The notes: generated by a model not told the origin, from the sequence alone. A stretch of DNA of 64,000 nucleotides from Candidatus Bathyarchaeota archaeon (GCA_025059195.1 JANXDU010000031.1:91892-155891), one strand, 5' to 3'. Counted from the first letter of the stretch, positions 3,603 through 14,296 are shown. Numbers and translations: made by a program.

Positions 3603-4211
3603 TCAGATGAATCCAATCCATCCGCCGAGGGCTTCGCCGAAATACGCGAGAAGCGTGAAAACTGCAAGTCTAGGTGCAAAACTTAAAACCAAAAACGTTT
3701 GGATGCGCGTTTTCAAAAGCCCGCACACCAGCGCGAGAAACTCCACTGGCAGCACCGGAATAATTCCAAACATGACGTAGAGGGGCCAACCCCACCGGTT
3801 CCAGAGAGCGGTTACCGCTTCAAGCTCCCCAGTTTTCATTTTCCTTTCAAGGAAAGGTCTCCCAAGGTGGCAAGCCAGAAAATAGTTTATGGTCATGCCA
3901 ATTGTAAACCCGACGGTGGCGGTCAACGCTAGCAAAACCGGATTGAGCCCAAAAGAGGCGGCGGCCACCACAAGGGCTGGGCTCCCAAGGGGCACTACTG
4001 TTCCAGCCAAAACTGTTGCGAGAAATATTCCAGCGAGACCATATTCCCTAACAAAGCCTTTGACATCCAAAAACAGCTGCGTTTTACTAACTTCAAAAAA
4101 TTTGAAAACAAAAATTAAAAACAAACCAATGACGATAAACACGAACCCAATGATTAGGGACGACTTAACCCAAGAAATTTTAAGCACGCTTAATTTTTGA
4201 TTGCTGTTCAA
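3603..4211 (-). CDS. DedA/VTT (SNARE-associated, YqaA-like) family membrane protein
   Basis: Multi-TM protein with the DedA-like core (GLAGIFLATVLAGTVVPLGSPALVVAAASFGLNP...INYFLACHLGRPFLE). The TTG start overlaps the stop of the upstream adenosyltransferase gene by 4 nt. Confidence 0.7.
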   Translation of the reverse strand: MNSNQKLSVLKISWVKSSLIIGFVFIVIGLFLIFVFKFFEVSKTQLFLDVKGFVREYGLAGIFLATVLAGTVVPLGSPALVVAAASFGLNPVLLALTATVGFTIGMTINYFLACHLGRPFLERKMKTGELEAVTALWNRWGWPLYVMFGIIPVLPVEFLALVCGLLKTRIQTFLVLSFAPRLAVFTLLAYFGEALGGWIGFI

Positions 4212-4738
4212 TAGTCAATCCCCTCCCTAGCTGGAAATCCTTTTCTATACGGGTGTTTAATTTCTCGCATTTCAGTGACTAAGTCGGCTGCCTCTATTAT
4301 CTCGTTCGGCGCATAACGGCCTGTCAAAACGAGCTCCACGTGTTCCGGCTTGTTTTTTATGAGTTCTAGAACTTTTTCTAGGCTTATGAGTTTAAGGCTT
4401 AAAGCCACGTTAATCTCATCTAATATAACCATGTCGTATTTGCCGCTTTCTACAACCTTTTTGGCTAGGTTGAAGGCTTCCTCGGCAAGGGCCACGTCCA
4501 CTTCATCGGGCGGCTTATGGGTTACAAACTGGCCTCTTCCGAAGGCTTTTAATGTGATATTTGGAAGTTTTTCTACGACATATAGTTCGCCGTAGTCGAA
4601 GCCGCCCTTGATAAATTGGACTATGTAAACTTTTAGGCCTCTTCCTATGGCTCTTAATGCAAGCCCAAAGGCGGCTGAGGTTTTGCCTTTTCCGTCTCCC
4701 GTGTAAACCTGCACGAAACCCTTTTCAAGTTTGGGCAT
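4208..4738 (-). CDS. cobO: cob(I)alamin/cob(I)yrinic acid a,c-diamide adenosyltransferase, CobA/CobO/BtuR type
   Basis: Signature N-terminus VQVYTGDGKGKTSAAFGLALRAIGRGLKVYIVQFIKG plus DEINVAL. Sits in the operon with MeaB and the mutase. Confidence 0.85.
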   Translation of the reverse strand: MPKLEKGFVQVYTGDGKGKTSAAFGLALRAIGRGLKVYIVQFIKGGFDYGELYVVEKLPNITLKAFGRGQFVTHKPPDEVDVALAEEAFNLAKKVVESGKYDMVILDEINVALSLKLISLEKVLELIKNKPEHVELVLTGRYAPNEIIEAADLVTEMREIKHPYRKGFPAREGIDY

Positions 4739-4744
4739 CCGCCG

Positions 4745-5695
4745 TCACTCCAGCTGCTCTTGATTTAAGAGTTTTTCCGCCGCTGTAGCGGGGTCTATCT
4801 CTCTATTAACGATTTGTTGAAGAATCTTCTCGAACAGTTTTTCTCTTTTAAGCTTCTCTATTATCGAGCTTGTCACTTTATCCCTTATTGCCTCTATCAG
4901 TTCGGCTTGGGCTTTCTCCCAACTTCTTTCATGCCCTAACTCTTTTTGGAGAAACTGTCTATGCTCCTCTATTTTGTCTAAAAGTTGCTGAACGCCTTCG
5001 CCTGTGATGGCGATGGTCTTAACTATGGGCGGATTCCAAACTTTTTTTCGGTCGTCTAACTGTAGCATTGCCTGAATATCCATAACGGTTTTGTCTGCGT
5101 TTTCTCTGTCCGCCTTGTTTACGACGAATATGTCGGCGATCTCCATTAAGCCGGCTTTAATGGCTTGGATTTCGTCGCCGAGGCCGGGGGCGTGTATGAC
5201 GACTATTGTTTGGGCAACCTTGATTATCTCCACTTCCGATTGTCCAGCGCCAACGGTTTCCACTATTATCACGTCTTTTCCAGCAGCGTCCAAAATCTTA
5301 ACAGCGTCCTTTGTGGCTTTGGCTATACCTCCGGGATTGTTGCGGGTTGCCATGCTCCGTATGAAAACGCCTTCGTCTATGCTTAAATCTTGCATTCGGA
5401 TTCTATCGCCTAAAAACGCTCCACCACTGAAGGGGCTTGTGGGGTCCACGGCTATAACGCCGACAGTTTTGTCCCTCCGCCTGTACTCGCGAACCATCTT
5501 CTCAATAAGGGTGCTTTTTCCAGCCCCACCCGGCCCCGTTAAGCCTATCACGTGAGCTTTTCCAGTATAGGAATAGATTAAGGCGATAAGCTTCTGCGCT
5601 TCTTGAGGGCTGTTTTCCACTATGGTTATGGCTCTGGCTATGCTTCTCTTGTCCCCCGCAAGCACGCCTCTCGCTATTTCTTCAACTTTCGACAA
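4745..5695 (-). CDS. meaB: methylmalonyl-CoA mutase-associated G-protein chaperone MeaB/ArgK
   Basis: P-loop GLTGPGGAGKSTL, switch motifs (IIVETVGAGQSE) and the NKAD guanine-specificity motif. TTG start. Confidence 0.9.
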   Translation of the reverse strand: MSKVEEIARGVLAGDKRSIARAITIVENSPQEAQKLIALIYSYTGKAHVIGLTGPGGAGKSTLIEKMVREYRRRDKTVGVIAVDPTSPFSGGAFLGDRIRMQDLSIDEGVFIRSMATRNNPGGIAKATKDAVKILDAAGKDVIIVETVGAGQSEVEIIKVAQTIVVIHAPGLGDEIQAIKAGLMEIADIFVVNKADRENADKTVMDIQAMLQLDDRKKVWNPPIVKTIAITGEGVQQLLDKIEEHRQFLQKELGHERSWEKAQAELIEAIRDKVTSSIIEKLKREKLFEKILQQIVNREIDPATAAEKLLNQEQLE

Positions 5696-5716
5696 GACAT
5701 CTACTCTTCTTTAGTG

Positions 5717-6133
5717 TTATCTTTTAGGAGCATTTTTCAACACATATTTTATGATCTTCTCTGTGGGGGTTCCGGGCCCGAAAACCTCTTTTATTCCAAT
5801 CTTCTTCAACTCTGAGACGTCTTCTTCTGGGATTATGCCTCCCGCGAACACCAGCACGTCCGTTAAGCCCTTCTCTTTGAGCAGTTCCATTATTCTTGGG
5901 AAAAGCGTCATGTGGGCGCCTGACAGAATGCTTAACCCTATCACGTCCACGTCTTCTTGTAATGCTGCTTCCACAATTTGTTCGGGAGTCTGCCTCAACC
6001 CTGTGTAGATTACCTCCATTCCAGCGTCGCGTAGAGCTCTTGCCACAACCTTCGCGCCCCTGTCGTGGCTGTCCAATCCCGGCTTGGCTATTAGGACTCT
6101 GATTTTTCTTCCGCTTTTACTTTCGTTTTGCAT
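5717..6133 (-). CDS. methylmalonyl-CoA mutase small subunit (B12-binding domain)
   Basis: The DxHxxG cobalamin-binding motif is present ([18 protein letters not shown]), followed by GLS..SG. Confidence 0.9.
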
Positions 6134-6163
6134 GGTTTAGCCTCCACATTCCCTATCAAGATT

Positions 6164-7846
6164 TTAGATTATTATTAGCTCTTTGTATTCTCCGTAAACT
6201 TTTCGAAGCACATCCATTATTTCGCCCAATGTGGCGTAGGCTTTAACCGCCTCAATTATAGTGGGCATGAGATTTTCACCTTTTTCTGCAGTGTAATGAA
6301 GCTTTTCAAGCGCTTCTTTGACCTTTCTGTTGTCCCGTTCCCTTCGCAGTTTCTGGAGCCGTTCAACCTGTTTTTTCTCGACGCTCGGGTTAACCCTTAA
6401 CAGTTTTATTGGAATTTCTTCGCCTTCTATGATGTATTCGTTTACGCCGACAATTATGCGCTTTTTCTCCTCTATTTCCCGCTGGTATCGGTAGGCGCTA
6501 TCAGCTATCTCCCTTTGGAAAAAGCCTTTTTCTATGGCGGGAATTACGCCGCCCATGTCGTCAATCTTTTGTATGTATTCCATGGCTTTCTCTTCCATCT
6601 CGTTCGTCAAGGCCTCCACGTAATAAGAGCCGGCCAACGGGTCAACGGTGTTTGCCACGCCGCTCTCGTAGGCGATTATCTGCTGGGTTCTAAGCGCCAC
6701 TCGCACAGACTCCTCTGTGGGCAAGCATAAAGCCTCGTCAAAAGAGTTTGTGTGAAGCGACTGGGTTCCGCCCAGCACAGCGGCCAAAGCTTGAATCGTT
6801 GTGCGGACAATGTTGTTCAGGGGTTGCTGCGCTGTTAAGGTGCAGCCCGAAGTTTGCACGTGCATGCGCATCCACATGGAACGCGGATTTTTAGCGTGGA
6901 AACGTTCCTTCATTATTTTAGCCCATAAGCGTCTAGCGGCCCTAAACTTGGCTATTTCCTCGAAAAAGTCGTTGTGAGAAGCGAAGAAAAACGACAAACG
7001 ATGTGCAAAATCGTCCACCTTTAAGCCTCGTTTAAGGGTTTCCTCAACGTAGGCTATTCCATCATAAAGCGTGAAAGCCAACTCTTGAACGGCTGTGGCG
7101 CCTGCCTCGCGGATGTGATAACCGCTTATACTAATAGGGTTCCACTTAGGCAAATGTCTAGCACAATACTCTATGATGTCCACGGAAAGCTTCAAGGAAG
7201 GCTTCGGCGGAAAAATGCAAAGCTTCTGGGCGAAAAACTCCTTCAAATTATCATTTTGAGTTGTGCCTCCAAGCTTTTCCCTAGAGACGCCTTGCTTGTC
7301 GCCTACAGCAACATACATAGCCAACAAAACGGAAGCTGGGCCATTAATAGTCATAGATGTAGTAACCCTGTCTAAGGGTATGCCGTCAAAGAGGATTTCC
7401 ATGTCCCGCAATGAGGATACAGCTACCCCGCAGACACCCACCTCGCCCCGCGCCATGGGGTGGTCGGAATCATAACCCATAATTGTTGGGTAGTCGAAAG
7501 CCGTGCTCAGCCCGGTTTCACCCTCGCTCAGCAAGTATTTGAACCGCTTATTAGTGTCTTCCGCAGTGCCGTATCCAGCGAACATCCGCATCGTCCACAA
7601 TCGTCCACGGTACATGGTTGCATGCAAACCCCGCGTGAACGGATACTCGCCTGGAAACCCCAAATCCCGCATGTAATCCAAATCTTTGATGTCTTCAGGC
7701 GTGTACAAGCCCTTAACCGTTATGCCTGAATGGTTTTTGAACTCTTTTTGACGTTCGGGGCACTGTTTAATCCAGTTTGGCAGCGTGGATTTTTCCCAGC
7801 GTTCTCTTTCTTTTGTTATTTCTTCAATTTTCCGATGGTCGAACAT
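6164..7846 (-). CDS. methylmalonyl-CoA mutase large (catalytic, substrate-binding) subunit
   Basis: 560 aa with typical MCM N-terminal barrel motifs ([38 protein letters not shown]). Confidence 0.92.
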
Positions 7847-7953: not shown

Positions 7954-9132
7954 ATGGCTTCAAAAGGTTTCGGCTTTTCCACAAAAGCCGTGCGGGGTGG
8001 AGAGAAACCCGACAGTGCAGGCGCGGTTTCCACACCAATTTACGAAACTTCCGTTTTCGCCTTTACAAACACGAAAAGGCTGGTTGAGGTTATAAGCGAA
8101 AAGGCGGAAGGCTACCTTTACACAAGATTTGACAACCCCACCGTTAGGGCTGTAGAGCGGAAAATGGCTGTTTTAGAAGACGCTGAAGACGCGGCAGCCT
8201 TTTCCTCTGGTATGGCAGCCATAACAACCACAGTCTTAACGTTGGTTTCAAAAGGCGACCACATAGTAGCCTCCATGGATCTTTACGGTGGAACCTTAAC
8301 CTTTTTCCAAGAGGTTCTCCCAAGGTTCAGCGTTGAGGTAAGCCTTGTAGACGCTTCAAACCTAAGTGAAGTGGAAAACGCCATACAAGAGAACACACGG
8401 ATTGTCTATGTGGAGACTCCAACAAATCCGACGTTGAAAATAGTTGATTTACACGGATTAGCCGTCACAGCCAAAAAGAGGGGAGTAACCACCGTGGTTG
8501 ACAGCACGTTGGCTTCGCCCTATAATTTGCAGCCTTTAAAGTTCGGCGTAAACGTGGTTGTTCACAGCGCCACCAAATACTTGGGCGGACACAACGACGT
8601 AACCGCGGGAATAGTATGCGGCTCCAAAGAGTTCATCCAAAAACTAAAAAGAATGAGGAAAATATTGGGCGGAACCCTCGACCCAGTGGCGGCTTGGCTT
8701 TTGCTGCGGGGCTTAAAAACCTTAGCCTTGAGGATGGAAAAGCACAATCAAAACGGCATGCAAGTTGCCAAGTTCTTAGCGAGACATCCAAAAGTTGCCA
8801 GAGTTTATTATCCGGGTCTACCAAGCCATCCTCAGCACGCTTTAGCCAAAAAACAAATGCGCGGCTACGGCGGAGTCGTAAGCTTCGAAATAAAGGGAGA
8901 CTTTGAAAAAACAGTGCAGTTCGTGGAAAACCTTAAGCTTTGTTTCTTGGCGGCCAGCCTTGGTGGAACAGAAACGTTGGCCACACAGCCAGCCACGTCA
9001 TCCCACTACTTTATAGCCCCAGAACAACGCCAGAAACTTGGCATAACTGACCAGCTTGTACGTTTAGCTCTCGGAATAGAGGACGCAGAAGACATAATTG
9101 CCGACCTAAAACAAGCCCTAAACAAAATCTAG
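7954..9132 (+). CDS. PLP-dependent Cys/Met-metabolism enzyme (cystathionine gamma-synthase / gamma- or beta-lyase / methionine gamma-lyase family)
   Basis: N-terminus STKAVRGGE...STPIYETSVF and the PLP-lysine motif HSATKYLGGHNDV. Subfamily cannot be resolved by eye. Confidence 0.85.
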   Translation: MASKGFGFSTKAVRGGEKPDSAGAVSTPIYETSVFAFTNTKRLVEVISEKAEGYLYTRFDNPTVRAVERKMAVLEDAEDAAAFSSGMAAITTTVLTLVSKGDHIVASMDLYGGTLTFFQEVLPRFSVEVSLVDASNLSEVENAIQENTRIVYVETPTNPTLKIVDLHGLAVTAKKRGVTTVVDSTLASPYNLQPLKFGVNVVVHSATKYLGGHNDVTAGIVCGSKEFIQKLKRMRKILGGTLDPVAAWLLLRGLKTLALRMEKHNQNGMQVAKFLARHPKVARVYYPGLPSHPQHALAKKQMRGYGGVVSFEIKGDFEKTVQFVENLKLCFLAASLGGTETLATQPATSSHYFIAPEQRQKLGITDQLVRLALGIEDAEDIIADLKQALNKI

Positions 9133-9216: not shown

Positions 9217-9687
9217 TTAGCGTTCTGCTGGTTTGAAGTAGGCTATGTCGTTTATGGAGGCTTTCCGCTCGTTGGGCGGCTTGAAGACGGCTTCCACTTT
9301 CATTCCAATATAGACTTTTTCTGTTTCACCTATCCGATGGATTAACCCGCCGTGGGCCCCTTCAAACTTTATTAGGGCGTATATCTGCGGTTTCTCCAGT
9401 TTTTTGCCGTCCACGTCTATGGTGGTAATGGTGTACGTGTAGATTTCGCCGCGTTTGCCGACGTCCACCCACTCTTCAAGCTTTGTAAAACATTTTTCAC
9501 AGTAAAGCCTTGGCGGAACAAAAACCACACTGCATTTCGGGCATTTAGCCCCCATTATGCGGGCGTTCTCCTTAATCTCCTTTAAGAAGCGTTCACCCGC
9601 AACACCCAACGTGTAGCGGTAGTCCGTTTCCATGTGGCCTATCCAGTGCCGCGCATTAAGCGGGTTATTTATTTTTTCAAGGCTCAT
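9217..9687 (-). CDS. DUF35 family Zn-ribbon + OB-fold protein
   Basis: CPKCSVVFVPPRLYCEKC rubredoxin-like ribbon followed by an OB-fold-like C-terminus (GLIHRIGE...IGMKVEAVF). Last gene of the thiolase-like operon. Confidence 0.8.
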   Translation of the reverse strand: MSLEKINNPLNARHWIGHMETDYRYTLGVAGERFLKEIKENARIMGAKCPKCSVVFVPPRLYCEKCFTKLEEWVDVGKRGEIYTYTITTIDVDGKKLEKPQIYALIKFEGAHGGLIHRIGETEKVYIGMKVEAVFKPPNERKASINDIAYFKPAER

Positions 9688-9694
9688 AGGCGTT

Positions 9695-10210
9695 TCACTC
9701 CTTTATAGGCTTGAAGTATTTTATGTCGGTGATGGCGCCTACACGCTCTTCTGGAGGCTTCCAGACGGCTTTCACACGCATGCCGATTTTGATTTCCCGC
9801 CAGTCGCCGTACTCGTTCAGCCAATGAACTATCCCCATGCCCTCTGAAGCACCGTCCAAGTTTATAATAGCCACCACAATGGGCTCTTTTAGCCTAGACG
9901 CATCAGCCGCTATAAACGAGACTGAAAATGTGTTGATAGTGCCTGTGTCCTTCACATAAGTCCAGCCATCCGTTGGCTTAAAGCACTTTTCACAGTAGAT
10001 TCGCGGCGGAACCATTATGCGCTTGCACTTGCTGCAAGTGGAAGCCAAAATCCGCCCGTTCTTCAATTCTTCTAGGAAACGGCTTATAGCTATGCCGGCG
10101 CTCCAAGCGTATTTAGCCTTGGGCTTGAAACTTTCGAATAGCACTTTCCCCTCGCGGAAGTCTTGCGTTTCAATTTCCTCGCCCGGATAATGCTTAATCT
10201 TGACACTCAC
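9695..10210 (-). CDS. DUF35 family Zn-ribbon + OB-fold protein
   Basis: CSKCKRIMVPPRIYCEKC ribbon followed by an OB-fold-like C-terminus (IKIGMRVKAVW). Confidence 0.8.
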   Translation of the reverse strand: MSVKIKHYPGEEIETQDFREGKVLFESFKPKAKYAWSAGIAISRFLEELKNGRILASTCSKCKRIMVPPRIYCEKCFKPTDGWTYVKDTGTINTFSVSFIAADASRLKEPIVVAIINLDGASEGMGIVHWLNEYGDWREIKIGMRVKAVWKPPEERVGAITDIKYFKPIKE

Positions 10211-10226
10211 CCTTCAACACCCCCTG

Positions 10227-11393
10227 TTAACGTCTCAACACGATTACCGAGCTGTACTGCATTAAGTCGCCCCAAGCCTGCGCCACGCCAGTGCGTGGGT
10301 CGCCTGGCACTTGCCTTTTGCCAGCCTCCCCTCGTAGTTGCCAGAAGATTTCGCAAACCTTCATCAGTCCAGCCGCTGAAATGGGGTTTCCAACCCCTAA
10401 AAGACCGCCGGACGGGCAAACGGGCAGGTCTCCGTCCCTTTGGGTTACGCCTTCTCTGGTGAGTTTTGGCGCTTCGCCCTTCTTGCACAAGAGTAAGCCT
10501 TCCATGTGGTGAAGCTCCTTGTAGTCAAAGGGGTCGTAGGGTTCAGCAACGTCGATTTCCTTCGGCGGATTCTTTATTCCAGCCATTTTATACGCCATGC
10601 GGGCCGCATACTCTACATAGTCTGGATAGTAGAGGTCACGGTTTGTCCAGTGAGTTGAGTCTATGCACCAGCCAACTCCATCGATCCAAACAGGGTTGTC
10701 CGTAACTTCTTTGGCCACATCCTCCGAAACAAGGACAACAGCGGCCGCGCCGTCACTTGTGGGGCTGACGTCGAGGCGCTGGACAGGCCAAGCCATGATC
10801 TCGGAGTTTAAAACGTCTTCCACGGTTATGTTGGCGGCCAATTGGGCTATGGGGTTGTCTAAGGCGTTTCGCTTGTTCTTAACCGAAACGAGGGCGATGT
10901 CCTCTTTTTTGATGTTGTGCTTGTGCATGTAGCGGTTCATTTCCAAGGCGAAAATCCAAATGAGGTTCATTCCAATGGGCCTTTCAAGAATTGGATCGAA
11001 TATTGTTGTGAAGGCGTATTGTGGGTGCGGATAACAGGAAGACATTTTCTCCTCGCACACGACAAGGCATGTGTCAAATTTTCCAGAGGCAACGTGCCAC
11101 CAACCAGCCAAAGGCGCAAACACGCCGGTCGCGCCGCCCACGAAAACCCTCATATATGGTTTATGGTATGCTCCGGCGCCGTCAGCCAAATACTCGCCCT
11201 TCATATGGACTCCATCAAAGGCGTCCGGCGCCGACCCTACAACCACGCTTTGGATGTCGTGGAGCTCCATTCCAGCCTGTTCGAGAGCCATTTTCGCCGC
11301 GTGGTAGGCCAGCTCTTTACCTGTTTCTTTTAAGTTTCGTCTAAATAGGGTTACACCTGCGCCAACTATGGCTACCCGCTTTTTACCAAACAT
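10227..11393 (-). CDS. thiolase-fold (SCP-x/nsLTP-like) protein lacking the canonical thiolase catalytic residues
   Basis: Aligns along its length with the intact thiolase at 12717..13889. It has G where the nucleophilic Cys sits (FVGGATGV vs EAACSSSG), YDPF instead of HDCF, and GNP instead of GHP. Confidence 0.8.
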   Translation of the reverse strand: MFGKKRVAIVGAGVTLFRRNLKETGKELAYHAAKMALEQAGMELHDIQSVVVGSAPDAFDGVHMKGEYLADGAGAYHKPYMRVFVGGATGVFAPLAGWWHVASGKFDTCLVVCEEKMSSCYPHPQYAFTTIFDPILERPIGMNLIWIFALEMNRYMHKHNIKKEDIALVSVKNKRNALDNPIAQLAANITVEDVLNSEIMAWPVQRLDVSPTSDGAAAVVLVSEDVAKEVTDNPVWIDGVGWCIDSTHWTNRDLYYPDYVEYAARMAYKMAGIKNPPKEIDVAEPYDPFDYKELHHMEGLLLCKKGEAPKLTREGVTQRDGDLPVCPSGGLLGVGNPISAAGLMKVCEIFWQLRGEAGKRQVPGDPRTGVAQAWGDLMQYSSVIVLRR

Positions 11394-11408
11394 GTCAAAA
11401 CACCCCCT

Positions 11409-12566
11409 CTATTTCACTTTGCTTAAGACGGCTACAACGCCGGTTGCTGTTGGAATCCCACGCCAAGTATGGGCTAAGCCCACCTCGGCATCATCAATCT
11501 GTCTTGCGCCGGCTTCACCTCGTAGTTGTATGACAACCTCCAACACCTTTTGTAATCCAGAAGCCTCAAGCCCATAGCCCATTCCGAGCAGACCACCCGA
11601 CGGATTTACTGGAAATTCTCCATTCAAAGATGTTAAGCCGTCCTCCGTCAGTTTTCCTGCCTCGCCGTAATCGCACAGCTTTAGGGCTTCCATGTGCTGC
11701 AGTTCCTTGTAGGCGAACAAGTCATGGATTTCAGCAAAATCTATGTCCCGCCAAGGGTTAGTAATTTTAGCCTCCTTATAGGCCATTTCAGCTGCCAGCC
11801 GTGTGTAGACAGCCCGTGTCCAGTCGCGGGTTTCAAGGCTTGGGGTTTCAGTACACCAGCCGACACCTTTTACCCAGATAGGCTTGTCCGTAAGTTTTTC
11901 TGCGACTTTTTCCGAGGCTAAAACCATAACTATGCAGCCATCAGCTGGTGTGCTTATCTCCAACTTTTTCAGCGGGTGGAAAAGCTTCTCGGAATGCATC
12001 ACTTGGTCTAAGGTTATGTTTGCGCCGTAAGCCGCATGGGGGTTGAGTAGGGCGTTCCTCTTGTTTTTAACCACAACTTGGGCGCACTGTTCCTCTGTTG
12101 TGCAGGTTTCATACAAGTAGCGGGTCATCTCCAACCCGGCAACATAGTAGGGGTGGCCGCCCAAAGGCCTATTAAAGATTGGGTCAAACCCGAACTGAAC
12201 GATATCCGTGTACGTGAGAATGTCTGAGGCTTTGCTGTGGGCTTCTAGGACAACCGTGTCAAACTGGCCGGTCTTTATGAGCATGTAAGCTGCTGCGAGT
12301 CCAAGCATGCCGTCGCCTGTAACCGTGAACAAGTGGCGTAAGGCTGCTCCAAGCTGGTCTGGGACAAACTCGTCAAATATGCTGAAACCCTCTAAATAGT
12401 CTTCAGAACACGCCACAAAAATGTCTACGTCTTCTCTTGGGTTTATTCCGCCGGCATCCTCGTAGGCTTTAACAGCCGCCTCGAACATTAGCTCCTTGTA
12501 AGACAGCTCCGGCGTCATTGGTCTAAAGCCAACACATCCAACACCTATGATTGCAACTTCGCTCAA
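11409..12566 (-). CDS. thiolase-fold (SCP-x/nsLTP-like) protein lacking the canonical thiolase catalytic residues
   Basis: Thiolase-like throughout. It has T/G at the Cys position (TVTGDGML), HDLF instead of HDCF, and GYG instead of GHP. Confidence 0.8.
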   Translation of the reverse strand: MSEVAIIGVGCVGFRPMTPELSYKELMFEAAVKAYEDAGGINPREDVDIFVACSEDYLEGFSIFDEFVPDQLGAALRHLFTVTGDGMLGLAAAYMLIKTGQFDTVVLEAHSKASDILTYTDIVQFGFDPIFNRPLGGHPYYVAGLEMTRYLYETCTTEEQCAQVVVKNKRNALLNPHAAYGANITLDQVMHSEKLFHPLKKLEISTPADGCIVMVLASEKVAEKLTDKPIWVKGVGWCTETPSLETRDWTRAVYTRLAAEMAYKEAKITNPWRDIDFAEIHDLFAYKELQHMEALKLCDYGEAGKLTEDGLTSLNGEFPVNPSGGLLGMGYGLEASGLQKVLEVVIQLRGEAGARQIDDAEVGLAHTWRGIPTATGVVAVLSKVK

Positions 12567-12589
12567 AGTTTTCCACTCTCCTTTCCCAT

Positions 12590-12621
12590 TGTAGAACCTA
12601 TAGTTTTAGGTGCATTCTACA
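12590..12621. promoter_or_regulatory. inverted repeat in the divergent thiolase promoter region (candidate operator)
   Basis: TGTAGAA (12590-12596) and TTCTACA (12615-12621) form 7-bp inverted arms. They enclose a second small palindrome, ACCTA-n6-TAGGT. The site lies between the divergent starts at 12566 and 12717. Confidence 0.25.
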
Positions 12622-12716
12622 TAAAACTTTCCGTTAAAAATGACGGAAAATGTTGAAGAAACTTAAATACTTGTTTTAAACTATGGATTTTCTCGCAAAT
12701 TTAGGAGAAGTGTAGT

Positions 12717-13889
12717 TTGAAGGGCAAACCCCTCGCCTCAATAGTTTCCGCCGGCTTATCCAAATTTGGAAAACTTGAAGGCTTGTATGCCCGTGAAATT
12801 TTCGCCCAGGCCGCTAAAGAGGCTTATGAACGTTGCCCGCGCCTAGACCCCAAAAAAGACATAAAAGCCCTATTCATTGGGCACATGGGGGAATCTTACG
12901 AACATCAAGGACATACCGGTGCCGCGGTGGCGGATTGGGCTGGACTGCTACACATACCAGCAATAAGAACGGAGGCTGCTTGTAGCTCTTCTGGAGTGGC
13001 CCTTAGAGCGGCCATATACGCAGTAGCTTCAGGCTTATGCGACGTTGTTATGGTGGGCGGCGTTGAAAAGATGACTCATCGAAGCACTTCCGAAGTCACG
13101 GAGTTTCTGGCTATGGCTTCGGATTTCCCCTTCGAACAGTGGTATGGCATAACCTTTCCAGGACTTTTTGCGCTCATGGCAACGGCGCACATGCATAAGT
13201 ATGGCACAACAGAAGCACAGATGGCTCACGTTGCCGTAAAAAACCATTATAATGGAAGTTTAAACCCGAAGGCGCACATGCAGAAGGAAATAACCCTTGA
13301 ACAGGCTTTGTCCTCGCGGGTTATCGCTTGGCCCCTGAAGCTCTTTGATTGTTCGCTTATAACTGACGGGGCAAGCTGCCTAATCCTTACACGGCCAGAT
13401 ATAGCCAAAAAATACACAGACACACCAGTTCACATAATTGGCACTGGTCAAGCAAGCGACACCATAGGCTTGTATGAAAGGGAAGACTTCACATCGCTTA
13501 GAGCTGCAAAATTAGCGGCAAAACAGGCCTACGAAATGGCCGACGTAACCCCTGAAGACATAGACGTGGCTGAAGTGCACGACTGCTTCACCATAGCCGA
13601 AATAATAGCCTACGAAGACCTCGGCTTCTGCAAGCCCGGCGAAGGGGGGCGCCTAGCAGAAAACGGCGAAACAACCCTTAGAGGAAGGATTCCCGTGAAC
13701 ACAAGCGGAGGCCTAAAAGCAAAAGGCCACCCAGTAGGCGCCACGGGGACAGCTCAAGCCTACGAAATATACTTGCAACTCACCGGACAAGCCGAGAAAA
13801 GGCAAGTAGATGATGCGGAAATAGGCTTAACTCACAACGTAGGTGGTTCCGGCGCAACGGCAACAGTCCACATATACATAAAAGGGTGA
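12717..13889 (+). CDS. acetyl-CoA C-acyltransferase (thiolase), archaeal SCP-x type, catalytic residues intact
   Basis: Nucleophilic Cys motif RTEAACSSSGVAL, HDCF motif, and NTSGGLKAKGHPVGATG. TTG start preceded by aggag. Confidence 0.85.
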   Translation: MKGKPLASIVSAGLSKFGKLEGLYAREIFAQAAKEAYERCPRLDPKKDIKALFIGHMGESYEHQGHTGAAVADWAGLLHIPAIRTEAACSSSGVALRAAIYAVASGLCDVVMVGGVEKMTHRSTSEVTEFLAMASDFPFEQWYGITFPGLFALMATAHMHKYGTTEAQMAHVAVKNHYNGSLNPKAHMQKEITLEQALSSRVIAWPLKLFDCSLITDGASCLILTRPDIAKKYTDTPVHIIGTGQASDTIGLYEREDFTSLRAAKLAAKQAYEMADVTPEDIDVAEVHDCFTIAEIIAYEDLGFCKPGEGGRLAENGETTLRGRIPVNTSGGLKAKGHPVGATGTAQAYEIYLQLTGQAEKRQVDDAEIGLTHNVGGSGATATVHIYIKG

Positions 13890-14296
13890 AAATCATGACC
13901 GAACCCTTAACCTTCACAATAGAACAGTTCTACAAGAACATAAACCAGAAAAAACTGACCGGCGGAAAATGTCTAACATGTGGAAAAATCCACCTGCCGC
14001 CACGTCCCCTGTGTGATAATTGCCTATCAACGCAATTCAAATGGGTTGAACTACCAAGAAAAGGCACGCTTCTAACATACACGATAATTCACGTTGCGCC
14101 ATCCCAATTCCAAAAAATGACGCCTTACGCGGTTGGCATAATTCAACTGGAACACAACGTAAATCTCCCAGGAATTATAAAAGACACGCCGTTGGACAAG
14201 ATAAAGGTTGGGATGCCTCTAGAAGTAGAGCTTGAAGAAGCACCGCAATCTCAACATTGGCCCCAGTGGCCGAGATACTATTTCAAGCCAGCTTGA
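13886..14296 (+). CDS. DUF35 family Zn-ribbon + OB-fold protein
   Basis: CLTCGKIHLPPRPLCDNC ribbon followed by an OB-fold-like C-terminus. The start overlaps the thiolase stop by 4 nt (GTGA...ATGA type coupling). Confidence 0.8.
   Translation: MKIMTEPLTFTIEQFYKNINQKKLTGGKCLTCGKIHLPPRPLCDNCLSTQFKWVELPRKGTLLTYTIIHVAPSQFQKMTPYAVGIIQLEHNVNLPGIIKDTPLDKIKVGMPLEVELEEAPQSQHWPQWPRYYFKPA

Follow-up and report, generated by a model that had tools for sequence, protein, structure and literature searches.

A conserved archaeal operon of two thiolase-fold proteins lacking the catalytic cysteine and two DUF35 proteins, a candidate acyl-CoA lyase

We examined a 64,000-nucleotide stretch of the genome of a Candidatus Bathyarchaeota archaeon (GCA_025059195.1, JANXDU010000031.1:91892-155891), hereafter the window, from whose first letter positions are counted. 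It holds a four-gene operon, here termed the module, that encodes two thiolase-fold proteins (TlpA and TlpB) and two DUF35 proteins, and divergent from it a gene pair for an intact thiolase and its own DUF35 partner. Open reading frame (ORF) calls placed all six genes at the coordinates and strands given in the initial annotation:

11409..12566, minus strand: TlpA, thiolase-fold protein of 385 amino acids, NCBIfam PRK06066 equivalog
10227..11393, minus strand: TlpB, thiolase-fold protein of 388 amino acids, NCBIfam PRK06065 equivalog
9695..10210, minus strand: DUF35-1, 171 amino acids, zinc ribbon and oligonucleotide-binding (OB) fold, Pfam zf-ChsH2 and OB_ChsH2_C
9217..9687, minus strand: DUF35-2, 156 amino acids, second zinc-ribbon and OB-fold protein, Pfam zf-ChsH2 and OB_ChsH2_C
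12567..12716, no strand: divergent intergenic region of 150 nt, common to the module and the intact thiolase operon
12717..13889, plus strand: intact SCP-x/archaeal-type thiolase of 390 amino acids, with all four catalytic residues, PRK06064
13886..14296, plus strand: DUF35 partner of the intact thiolase, 136 amino acids, Pfam zf-ChsH2 and OB_ChsH2_C

The module genes are separated by 15, 16 and 7 nt, and the intact thiolase gene overlaps that of its partner by 4 nt. Pfam finds Thiolase_N and Thiolase_C_1 in TlpA, TlpB and the intact thiolase, and zf-ChsH2 with OB_ChsH2_C in the three small proteins. Each thiolase-fold protein passes its own NCBIfam model: the intact thiolase PRK06064 (NF004720; 507.8 bits, cut-off 420), TlpB PRK06065 (NF004721; 708.8 bits, cut-off 455) and TlpA PRK06066 (NF004722; 525.6 bits, cut-off 516). 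All three models are titled "thiolase domain-containing protein", and PRK06065 and PRK06066 carry no functional assignment; database sources label TlpA and TlpB acetyl-CoA C-acetyltransferase. The host genome is 92% complete and has five thiolase-fold genes in total.

The plus-strand pair had been described as intact, and its thiolase has the whole catalytic set: C89 (EAACSSS), H288 and C290 (HDCF), and H338 (GHP). At the C89 column TlpA has T83 and TlpB has G87, so the replacement of the nucleophilic Cys reported for both paralogues held residue for residue. The H288 column is occupied by H281 in TlpA (the His being kept, in IHDLF) and by Y286 in TlpB (YDPF), which is the one paralogue said to be without HDCF; the C290 column is L in TlpA and P288 in TlpB. 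At the H338 column the alignments likewise bear out the reported Tyr of TlpA (Y331, in GYG) and Asn of TlpB (N336, in GNP). Columns were set by a three-way MAFFT alignment, by HMMER alignment to the solved thiolases 7yvy, 4yzo, 7pxp (BbsB) and 6esq, and by alignments of 24 to 148 sequences, and all agree on the catalytic columns. Since the columns are identical in independent alignments, the catalytic residues are not merely shifted; the initial annotation had named such a shift as the finding that would undo its claim, and the agreement of MAFFT and HMMER on the four solved thiolases rules it out.

The losses extend to the orthologues. Over 24 orthologous loci, from Bathyarchaeia, other Thermoproteota, Thermoplasmata, Nitrososphaerota and Baldrarchaeia, the nucleophile column is G in 24/24 TlpB sequences and S, A or T in TlpA, with C in 1/24. 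The YDPF motif of TlpB is invariant. In most TlpA orthologues the His of the window protein's HDLF is replaced by D, S, E or T, and neither protein has a Cys in this motif. The column of the GHP His is N336 in 24/24 TlpB sequences, and V, Y, N or W in TlpA. The thiolase fold itself is kept, as indicated by the Pfam domains and by an AlphaFold2 model of TlpB (pLDDT 91.9). Judged by these residues, TlpA and TlpB cannot be Cys-dependent thiolases.

The two paralogues differ in how their former active sites have been treated. Four segments of TlpB are invariant in the 24 orthologues (V-G86-G87, Y286-D-P-F-x-Y291, G-V-G-N336-P-I and A-W-G-D-L-M-Q), and the state G/Y/P/N at the four catalytic columns occurs in every TlpB sequence of the tree described below. 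The TlpA columns vary as just given, neither His281 nor Tyr331 of the window protein is conserved in its orthologues, and the nucleophile loop is 3 residues shorter. Identity to the window proteins over the 24 loci is 63-91% for TlpB, 33-83% for TlpA and 28-77% for the DUF35 proteins. The ratio of nonsynonymous to synonymous substitution rates (dN/dS), taken against the two closest relatives and rough because dS is about 1 or more, is 0.011-0.016 for TlpB, 0.033-0.043 for TlpA, 0.05-0.07 for the two operon DUF35 genes and 0.02-0.045 for the intact thiolase, making TlpB, at about 0.01, the most constrained of the six genes. Decay into pseudogenes is rejected by values of 0.01-0.07 over the four operon genes and by the passing of equivalog models by both thiolase-fold proteins. 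As the TlpA site drifts while that of TlpB stays invariant, TlpA looks like a non-catalytic partner: it is probably a constrained protein with a decayed pocket, and TlpB, with what appears to be a rebuilt and strongly constrained active site, is probably the catalytic subunit. The description of both paralogues as catalytically degenerate thus stands for TlpA and falls for TlpB.

A tree of 148 sequences (FastTree, LG+gamma, Shimodaira-Hasegawa-like support) combines the orthologue sets of the three thiolase-fold proteins (TlpA, TlpB, intact thiolase), the relatives nearest to TlpB among 1.84 billion proteins, reduced to representatives at 50% identity, and four solved proteins, with type II thiolases as outgroup; sampling was by similarity to TlpB, and the steroid side-chain aldolases Ltp2 and Sal are not in it. 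Cys-bearing enzymes form a basal grade that includes the window thiolase, 6esq of M. thermolithotrophicus, 7yvy of P. furiosus and BbsB; the window thiolase groups near 6esq and 7yvy. TlpA and TlpB fall in a clade of 114 sequences (support 1.0) in which the nucleophilic Cys is lost from all but one member (P0230). This clade comprises seven sequences that group at its base, the TlpB clade, "B-type" relatives that are mostly G/Y/A-or-P/N, and, with TlpA nested in it, a large "A-type" clade whose residues vary. Placement inside a clade of confirmed thiolases had been given as a second ground for doubt, and the tree puts both proteins outside the characterised thiolases.

A separate loss of the nucleophile was seen in PDB 4yzo (ST0096 of Sulfolobus tokodaii), an apparently uncharacterised "thiolase-like protein" in which Ser occupies the nucleophile position and Met that of the HDCF Cys. 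It keeps both His, and in the tree it groups with S/P-H-A-H proteins within the thiolase grade. In two loci, more distant A-type and B-type pairs come with a single DUF35 gene. A Joint Genome Institute (JGI) metagenome contig (L064:3075-11826) carries a module of a related yet separate type, with two mirror-image sets of A-type and B-type Cys-less thiolase-like genes, each with one DUF35 gene, in company with a MaoC/mesaconyl-CoA-hydratase-like gene, an acyl-CoA dehydrogenase (ACAD) gene, and genes for a PaaK-like ligase and a BKACE protein. The combination there of A-type, B-type and DUF35 sets with MaoC hydratase, ACAD and CoA-ligase genes follows the same logic as the steroid side-chain system.

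Searches with TlpB (phmmer) gave E values of 3.4e-51 to 7yvy, 3.6e-22 to Sal (9MYR), 1.4e-20 to Ltp2 (6OK1) and 1e-10 to the Trypanosoma brucei SCP2-thiolase-like protein TbSLP. The TlpB model scores TM 0.87-0.94 to 7yvy, 6et9 and 4yzo and 0.83-0.86 to Sal, Ltp2 and TbSLP; in the Foldseek ranking Sal stands at 25 (query TM-score 0.86) and Ltp2 at 29 (0.83). The lipid-transfer-protein models of NCBIfam give 104-203 bits against cut-offs of 419-469. Membership of TlpB in an Ltp2 or Sal clade was rejected on sequence and on fold ranking, both of which place it nearer to archaeal thiolases.

TlpB relatives occur in at least 583 genomes (pattern scan, one genome per species), and carriers of the module belong to many archaeal and several bacterial phyla. 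In the best 80 loci TlpB is 70-97% identical to the window protein. The archaea among these are Bathyarchaeia, the Asgard lineages Promethearchaeota, Hod-, Hermod- and Thorarchaeota, Thermoplasmata, Nitrososphaeria, Geoglobus, and metagenome-assembled genomes (MAGs) that are Korarchaeota-like or of Geoarchaeota; the bacteria are Anaerolineae, Caldilineae, Symbiobacterium thermophilum, and deltaproteobacterial, actinomycetotal and Fraserbacteria MAGs. Within Thermoproteota the TlpB gene is patchy (61/301 genomes), occurring in every searched genome of some families and in none of others. Sulfolobus acidocaldarius, used as a control genome, carries the family.

In almost all of about 100 archaeal and bacterial loci the genes run TlpA>TlpB>DUF35>DUF35 on the same strand. 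Of the 99 loci with a TlpB call, 73 have two DUF35 ORFs called directly after it, and most of the others are contig ends, fusions or artefacts of the ORF filter. DUF35-1 is always the first gene after TlpB. Its four zinc-ribbon Cys are each present in at least 95% of 73 orthologues, and a C-terminal W-x-P...I-T-D-I-x-Y-F is also conserved; DUF35-2 is less conserved overall, with three Cys at or above 95% and the fourth at or above 50%, and its best solved relative is SSO2064 (3irb; E 2.5e-25). A natural TlpB-DUF35-DUF35 fusion (P0123, 731 amino acids; 27 cluster members, 715-732 amino acids) was found, and at L062:1479-4780 such a fusion has TlpA immediately upstream and a penicillin-binding-protein gene downstream, in a bacterial context. 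The fixed order and the natural fusions suggest that four different chains form a single complex. On the model of Ltp2 and Sal, whose complexes have an alpha-beta-beta-alpha layout, a TlpA-TlpB heterodimer would be flanked by the two DUF35 proteins. The putative heteromer with two dedicated DUF35 subunits proposed in the initial annotation fits the strict collinearity and the fusions.

Neighbour genes were clustered around 104 loci. The commonest conserved neighbours of the module are ACAD genes, which occur near it in 35/104 loci across 8 lineage labels and in three arrangements (divergent from the module, immediately upstream of TlpA or immediately downstream of DUF35-2), and genes for AMP-forming acyl-CoA synthetases, near it in 27/104 and of three subfamilies (acetoacetate-CoA ligase, ACS-like and FadD-like). 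The synthetase adjacent in locus L052 is a true acetoacetate-CoA ligase (808 bits, cut-off 639); homologues 57-83% identical to it adjoin the module in L054, L055, L059, L061 and L109, and others at 38-40% do so in three Nitrososphaeria loci. Less frequent neighbours are a crotonase (11/104 loci, for instance directly after the ACAD in Geoglobus L134), a type II thiolase (8-9 of 104), a 2-oxoacid dehydrogenase E1 alpha subunit (4/104, in two with E1 beta too; upstream together with ACAD in some lineages) and a 3-hydroxyacyl-CoA dehydrogenase (only 1/104). The adjacent ACADs are most like short-chain, butyryl- and isovaleryl-CoA dehydrogenases, about equally, and so do not discriminate among these substrate classes. 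ACAD neighbours together with the rarity of 3-hydroxyacyl-CoA dehydrogenase point to short or branched acyl-CoAs, and to a step that follows the ACAD and dispenses with an NAD-dependent dehydrogenase.

Elsewhere in the host genome are two clusters resembling beta-oxidation operons. One, at C16:10931-18287, has CoA-transferase A and B, ACAD, 3-hydroxyacyl-CoA dehydrogenase, crotonase and two ORFs like IorA/B (indolepyruvate:ferredoxin oxidoreductase). The other, at C8:52085-61911, has probable EtfB/A, ACAD, 3-hydroxyacyl-CoA dehydrogenase, ACAD, crotonase, a thiolase with DUF35, and an ORF resembling acyl-CoA ligases. Family searches confirm the names ACAD, crotonase and thiolase; the others were given from ORF size and sequence. 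These clusters give the organism, in addition to the Cys-less module, a conventional route that is complete.

The window also has, at 3603-7846, an operon for a B12-dependent acyl-CoA mutase, with these parts:

6164..7846, minus strand: large subunit of a B12 acyl-CoA mutase, Phe/Ala/Gln pocket, probably of isobutyryl-CoA-mutase type
5717..6133, minus strand: B12-binding small subunit of the mutase, TIGR00640, 188 bits
4745..5695, minus strand: MeaB-type G-protein chaperone of the mutase, Pfam MeaB, 311.5 bits
4208..4738, minus strand: ATP:corrinoid adenosyltransferase (CobA/CobO/BtuR type), Pfam PF02572, 230.5 bits

The module had been said to lie beside a methylmalonyl-CoA mutase (MCM) operon, a name that does not survive inspection of the pocket. 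The large subunit fails the MCM equivalog NF006944 (674 bits, cut-off 876), and its best solved relative is the 2-hydroxyisobutyryl-CoA mutase HcmA (4r3u, 629 bits; human MCM, 533). At the columns of MCM Tyr89 and the carboxylate-binding Arg207 (P. shermanii numbering) the window mutase has Phe and Gln, where the human, M. tuberculosis and P. shermanii MCMs have Tyr and Arg; it has Ala where HcmA has its hydroxyl-binding Asp. A second mutase paralogue, on another contig beside a transcarboxylase (C8 40807-42486), is Tyr/Ala/Arg. Against the IcmF equivalog, which is built on a fused protein, the window mutase scores 392 (cut-off 1500); none above that cut-off was found in five bacterial genomes searched. 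By its residues the window mutase is not a canonical MCM, and it is likely of isobutyryl-CoA type, given the Phe/Gln pair, which we take to be the signature of isobutyryl-CoA (or pivalyl-CoA) mutases.

Eleven other mutases near the module carry Phe/Ala/Gln, and two with Tyr/Ala/Arg sit 5-10 kb from their modules. The tightest association seen is in a deltaproteobacterial MAG (L096; JBBIRW010000001.1, 2903-13102), where the module lies inside the mutase operon, with the co-directional order 4HBT thioesterase, 3-hydroxyacyl-CoA dehydrogenase, TetR, ACAD, adenosyltransferase, mutase large subunit (F/A/Q), small subunit, TlpA, TlpB, DUF35, DUF35, MeaB. Among 71 genomes of the host order, which are kin and not independent, an F/Q mutase occurs in 11 of the 15 that bear the module and in 13 of the 56 that do not; two of those 11 have contig-end fragments only, one of them on the TlpB contig. 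The link between module and mutase is real but facultative, and it places the module in C4/C5 branched-chain acyl-CoA metabolism.

The 150-nt spacer between module and intact thiolase was compared with 15 related Bathyarchaeia intergenic regions. The palindrome TGTAGAA-n18-TTCTACA is present in this divergent promoter region (12590-12621), as had been noticed, and is not conserved in the related spacers; the block ACATAAAACTTT-CGTGAAAAA is kept in related Bathyarchaeia loci. The divergent arrangement itself was found in 16 loci, all from Bathyarchaeia or close archaea, and outside Bathyarchaeia no intact thiolase adjoins the module in the loci compared. Between mutase operon and module lies a pyridoxal-phosphate (PLP) enzyme of Cys/Met metabolism (7954-9132, plus strand), convergent with DUF35-2 and similar to methionine gamma-lyase and cystathionine gamma-synthase. 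It falls under every NCBIfam equivalog cut-off, and is not recurrent beside the module in other lineages.

The module is best read, from its residues and gene content, as a putative DUF35-dependent, Cys-less thiolase-fold lyase, distinguished by a presumed heterodimer of active and pseudo-subunit, by two dedicated DUF35 proteins, by a residue set unlike those of Ltp2 and Sal, and by its wide distribution. By analogy with those enzymes we put at about one half the probability that it is a Cys-independent, hetero-oligomeric lyase of retro-aldol type acting on short or branched acyl-CoAs. Its quaternary structure, retro-aldol chemistry, substrate class and reaction direction are all inferred. The thiolase-fold heterodimer would be clamped by the two different zinc-ribbon/OB proteins, copying the alpha-beta-beta-alpha layout of Ltp2-ChsH2(DUF35) and Sal-Shy(DUF35) with every subunit specialised, TlpB as catalytic subunit and TlpA as structural partner with a decayed site. 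Without a nucleophilic Cys TlpB can form no acyl-enzyme. The thiolase HDCF motif is YDCY in Sal, YDHF in Ltp2 and YDCF in SLP, and its Tyr is the essential base (PMC12329534); the equivalence of the TlpB motif to those of Ltp2 and Sal rests on that published alignment. Tyr286 of TlpB, which aligns with the His of HDCF and so takes the position of this base, would deprotonate the beta-hydroxyl of a 3-hydroxyacyl-CoA, and the thiolase oxyanion hole would stabilise the leaving acyl-CoA enolate, giving acetyl-CoA (or propionyl-CoA) and an aldehyde or ketone; the reverse aldol addition is the other possible direction. The substrate would probably be a short C4-C5, possibly branched, acyl-CoA supplied by the short-chain ACAD and, in Bathyarchaeia and one bacterium, also by the isobutyryl-CoA-type mutase.

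The initial annotation had suggested a non-thiolase C-C lyase, aldolase or condensing activity and a repurposed site like that of Ltp2. Cys-independence, purifying selection, the non-thiolase clade and the Gly and Tyr of TlpB support the first, with the aldolase step deduced from sequence; of the second, the Gly and the motif Tyr are shared and family membership is not. Several points weigh against the retro-aldol lyase. TlpB is without both known catalytic acids: Ltp2 uses Tyr344, 50 residues past its base Tyr (PMC12329534), where TlpB has the invariant Asn336, a presumed equivalence based on the equal +50 spacing, and the Cys304 of the Sal Tyr302/Cys304 dyad, whose replacement by Ala, Ser or His abolishes activity (PMC12329534), is the invariant Pro288. 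The mechanism of Ltp2 or Sal can therefore not simply be copied, and a third, undescribed arrangement for proton delivery would be needed; candidates among the invariant residues of TlpB may be Y291, D376 and H123 (in a conserved P-H-P-Q loop). As TlpB is nearer to true archaeal thiolases than to Ltp2 or Sal in both sequence and fold, the Tyr in common with Sal and Ltp2 could reflect convergence or coincidence. The module usually has no hydratase gene next to it, and in the window neither an ACAD nor a synthetase adjoins the operon. The mutase link is facultative, one 98%-complete genome having the module and only a Y/R mutase. Finally, no enzymology of the TlpA/TlpB family was found in the literature.

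A different enolate chemistry on a CoA thioester, such as (de)hydration of a 3-hydroxyacyl-CoA or enoyl-CoA, decarboxylation of an acyl-CoA that bears a carboxylate, isomerisation or epimerisation, carried out by the retained oxyanion hole and the Tyr, is unlikely, though it draws on the same features. Stabilising thioester enolates is mainly what the thiolase fold provides, the lack of both aldolase acids in TlpB suits such a role, and the homologue TbSLP is reported to show no more than weak malonyl-CoA decarboxylase activity (PMC12329534). Most loci have an ACAD and no hydratase, a gap that a hydratase role would fill; this includes the deltaproteobacterial locus L096, with its 3-hydroxyacyl-CoA dehydrogenase. 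In 11 loci, however, an adjacent crotonase would make that role redundant, the two His used by decarboxylating enzymes of the ketosynthase/chain-length-factor (KS/CLF) type are both lost, and those Cys-less homologues of SCP2-type thiolases that have a DUF35 partner and have been characterised are all retro-aldolases.

The module might instead have no catalytic role and serve as a scaffold, its pseudo-thiolase heterodimer and two DUF35 adaptors organising or regulating thiolase, ACAD, mutase and reductases. DUF35 proteins do mediate multi-enzyme assemblies, nucleating the thiolase/HMG-CoA synthase complex and that of Sulfolobus fatty-acid synthase (bioRxiv 10.1101/2024.07.05.601840; PMC12329534), TlpA is clearly degenerate, and in Bathyarchaeia an intact thiolase/DUF35 operon forms a divergent pair with the module. 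That pairing is confined to Bathyarchaeia, however, and a pure scaffold would be expected to keep its surfaces and not a remodelled catalytic pocket, while the former active-site residues of TlpB are invariant from archaea to bacteria and its dN/dS is the lowest of the six genes. We consider a scaffold unlikely.

It is improbable that the module replaces the lyase for HMG-CoA (3-hydroxy-3-methylglutaryl-CoA) in leucine catabolism, splitting HMG-CoA into acetoacetate and acetyl-CoA. The genuine acetoacetate-CoA ligase of L052 and its homologues in further loci invite this idea, as do the 2-oxoacid dehydrogenase E1 subunits and ACAD directly upstream in some lineages, and no HMG-CoA-lyase-like gene of lyase size was found in the host genome or in five ligase-linked genomes. 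Such a pathway needs methylcrotonyl-CoA carboxylase, yet two of those five genomes (99% and 93% complete) have no carboxyltransferase and the others have one, the single carboxyltransferase of the host lies in a transcarboxylase/MCM cluster, and in other lineages the adjacent synthetases are ACS-like or FadD-like. The classical leucine pathway with a replaced lyase is weakened by these missing or single carboxyltransferases. That TlpA and TlpB are ordinary thiolases after all, with another nucleophile or misaligned catalytic residues, accords with their fold and with the acetyl-CoA C-acetyltransferase label but is very improbable, as the catalytic columns are occupied by Gly/Thr, Tyr, Pro/Leu and Asn/Tyr in three independent types of alignment, TlpB orthologues have no Cys at any of these columns, and both proteins fall outside the thiolase clades.

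Hundreds of genomes, archaeal and bacterial, annotate these genes as acetyl-CoA acetyltransferases, among them those of Asgard archaea, Bathyarchaeia, Sulfolobales-like Thermoproteota, Archaeoglobi and Thermoplasmata, so that metabolic reconstructions credit them with thiolase steps that TlpA and TlpB cannot perform. TlpB is more conserved than the neighbouring housekeeping thiolase, which points to a defined and important reaction. Should the module be an aldolase for short or branched acyl-CoAs, chemistry of the Ltp2/Sal type would extend from steroid catabolism to general archaeal carbon metabolism, in a new heteromeric form with one active and one pseudo-subunit, two DUF35 clamps and a third set of catalytic residues. 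Our broader proposal is tentative: that this is a widespread Cys-free, thiolase-derived aldolase of the central metabolism of archaea and some anaerobic bacteria, joining acetyl-CoA with acetaldehyde, acetone or acetoacetate, providing a route into or out of C4/C5 acyl-CoAs, and working with isobutyryl-CoA-type B12 mutases in branched-chain acid metabolism. Such a C4/C5 route would bypass the step of 3-hydroxyacyl-CoA dehydrogenase as well as that of thiolase, which is thermodynamically difficult. S. acidocaldarius, which carries the family, is genetically tractable. The relabelling of the mutase bears on models of propionate and branched-chain acid metabolism in Bathyarchaeia.

No paper on the TlpA/TlpB family was found in the literature, and searches with putative Sulfolobus, Archaeoglobus and Thermoplasma locus tags were also blank. 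The study of the fatty-acid synthase of Sulfolobus deals with a true ketothiolase and its DUF35 partner (bioRxiv 10.1101/2024.07.05.601840), and the SSO2064 structure paper discusses DUF35 in general terms only. Several described systems can nevertheless be compared.

Closest to TlpA and TlpB in sequence and fold (TM 0.91-0.93) are the archaeal DUF35-dependent thiolases, dimers that depend on a DUF35 zinc-ribbon/OB protein; the plus-strand pair of the window is of this kind. They differ in having a true Cys/His/Cys/His set and Claisen chemistry through an acyl-enzyme. PhlABC/MucABC acyltransferases (5M3K, 9VBO) likewise combine two different thiolase-superfamily proteins with a DUF35 protein; unlike the module, PhlC keeps Cys88, PhlA resembles ketoacyl synthase III (KAS-III) and is not an SCP2-type paralogue, and there is one type of DUF35. 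TbSLP (5AB4-7) is Cys-less like TlpB, has the YDCF motif and binds acyl-CoAs; it differs in being eukaryotic, in keeping the motif Cys and in having no DUF35 partner described. Ltp3 and Ltp4 of actinobacterial sterol catabolism are adjacent thiolase-like paralogues, needed together and proposed to be an aldol-lyase (Wilbrink et al. 2012, as cited in PMC10398937). They are the only described two-paralogue precedent for TlpA and TlpB, differing in that the evidence is genetic only and the substrates are C24-branched sterol side chains. Models of PRK07937 type give about 100 bits against cut-offs above 400; Ltp3 and Ltp4 themselves were compared by description.

The nearest functional parallels are the two steroid enzymes. 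Ltp2-ChsH2(DUF35), the C3 side-chain aldolase (6OK1), has like TlpB a Cys-less thiolase fold, its base is the motif Tyr (Y294 of YDHF), and its DUF35 partner flanks the dimer; it acts after an ACAD and a hydratase. It differs in its acid, Tyr344, which is Asn in TlpB, and TlpB lies outside its clade. Sal-Shy(DUF35), the retro-aldolase of the bile-acid C5 side chain in Comamonas testosteroni (9MYR), has a homodimeric core and one DUF35 type, fused to a MaoC hydratase, and acts on steroids; its relation to TlpB is distant and its essential acid Cys304 is Pro there. Sal and TlpB nevertheless have in common an SCP2-type thiolase fold, a Gly at the position of the thiolase nucleophile (reported for Sal in PMC12329534; G87 in TlpB), a Tyr first in the former HDCF motif, and a DUF35 partner, obligatory in Sal and encoded by the two genes after TlpB. 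Both also have an amide residue where thiolases have the GHP His, Gln352 of Sal standing 50 residues past the Tyr (PMC12329534), as does Asn336 of TlpB.

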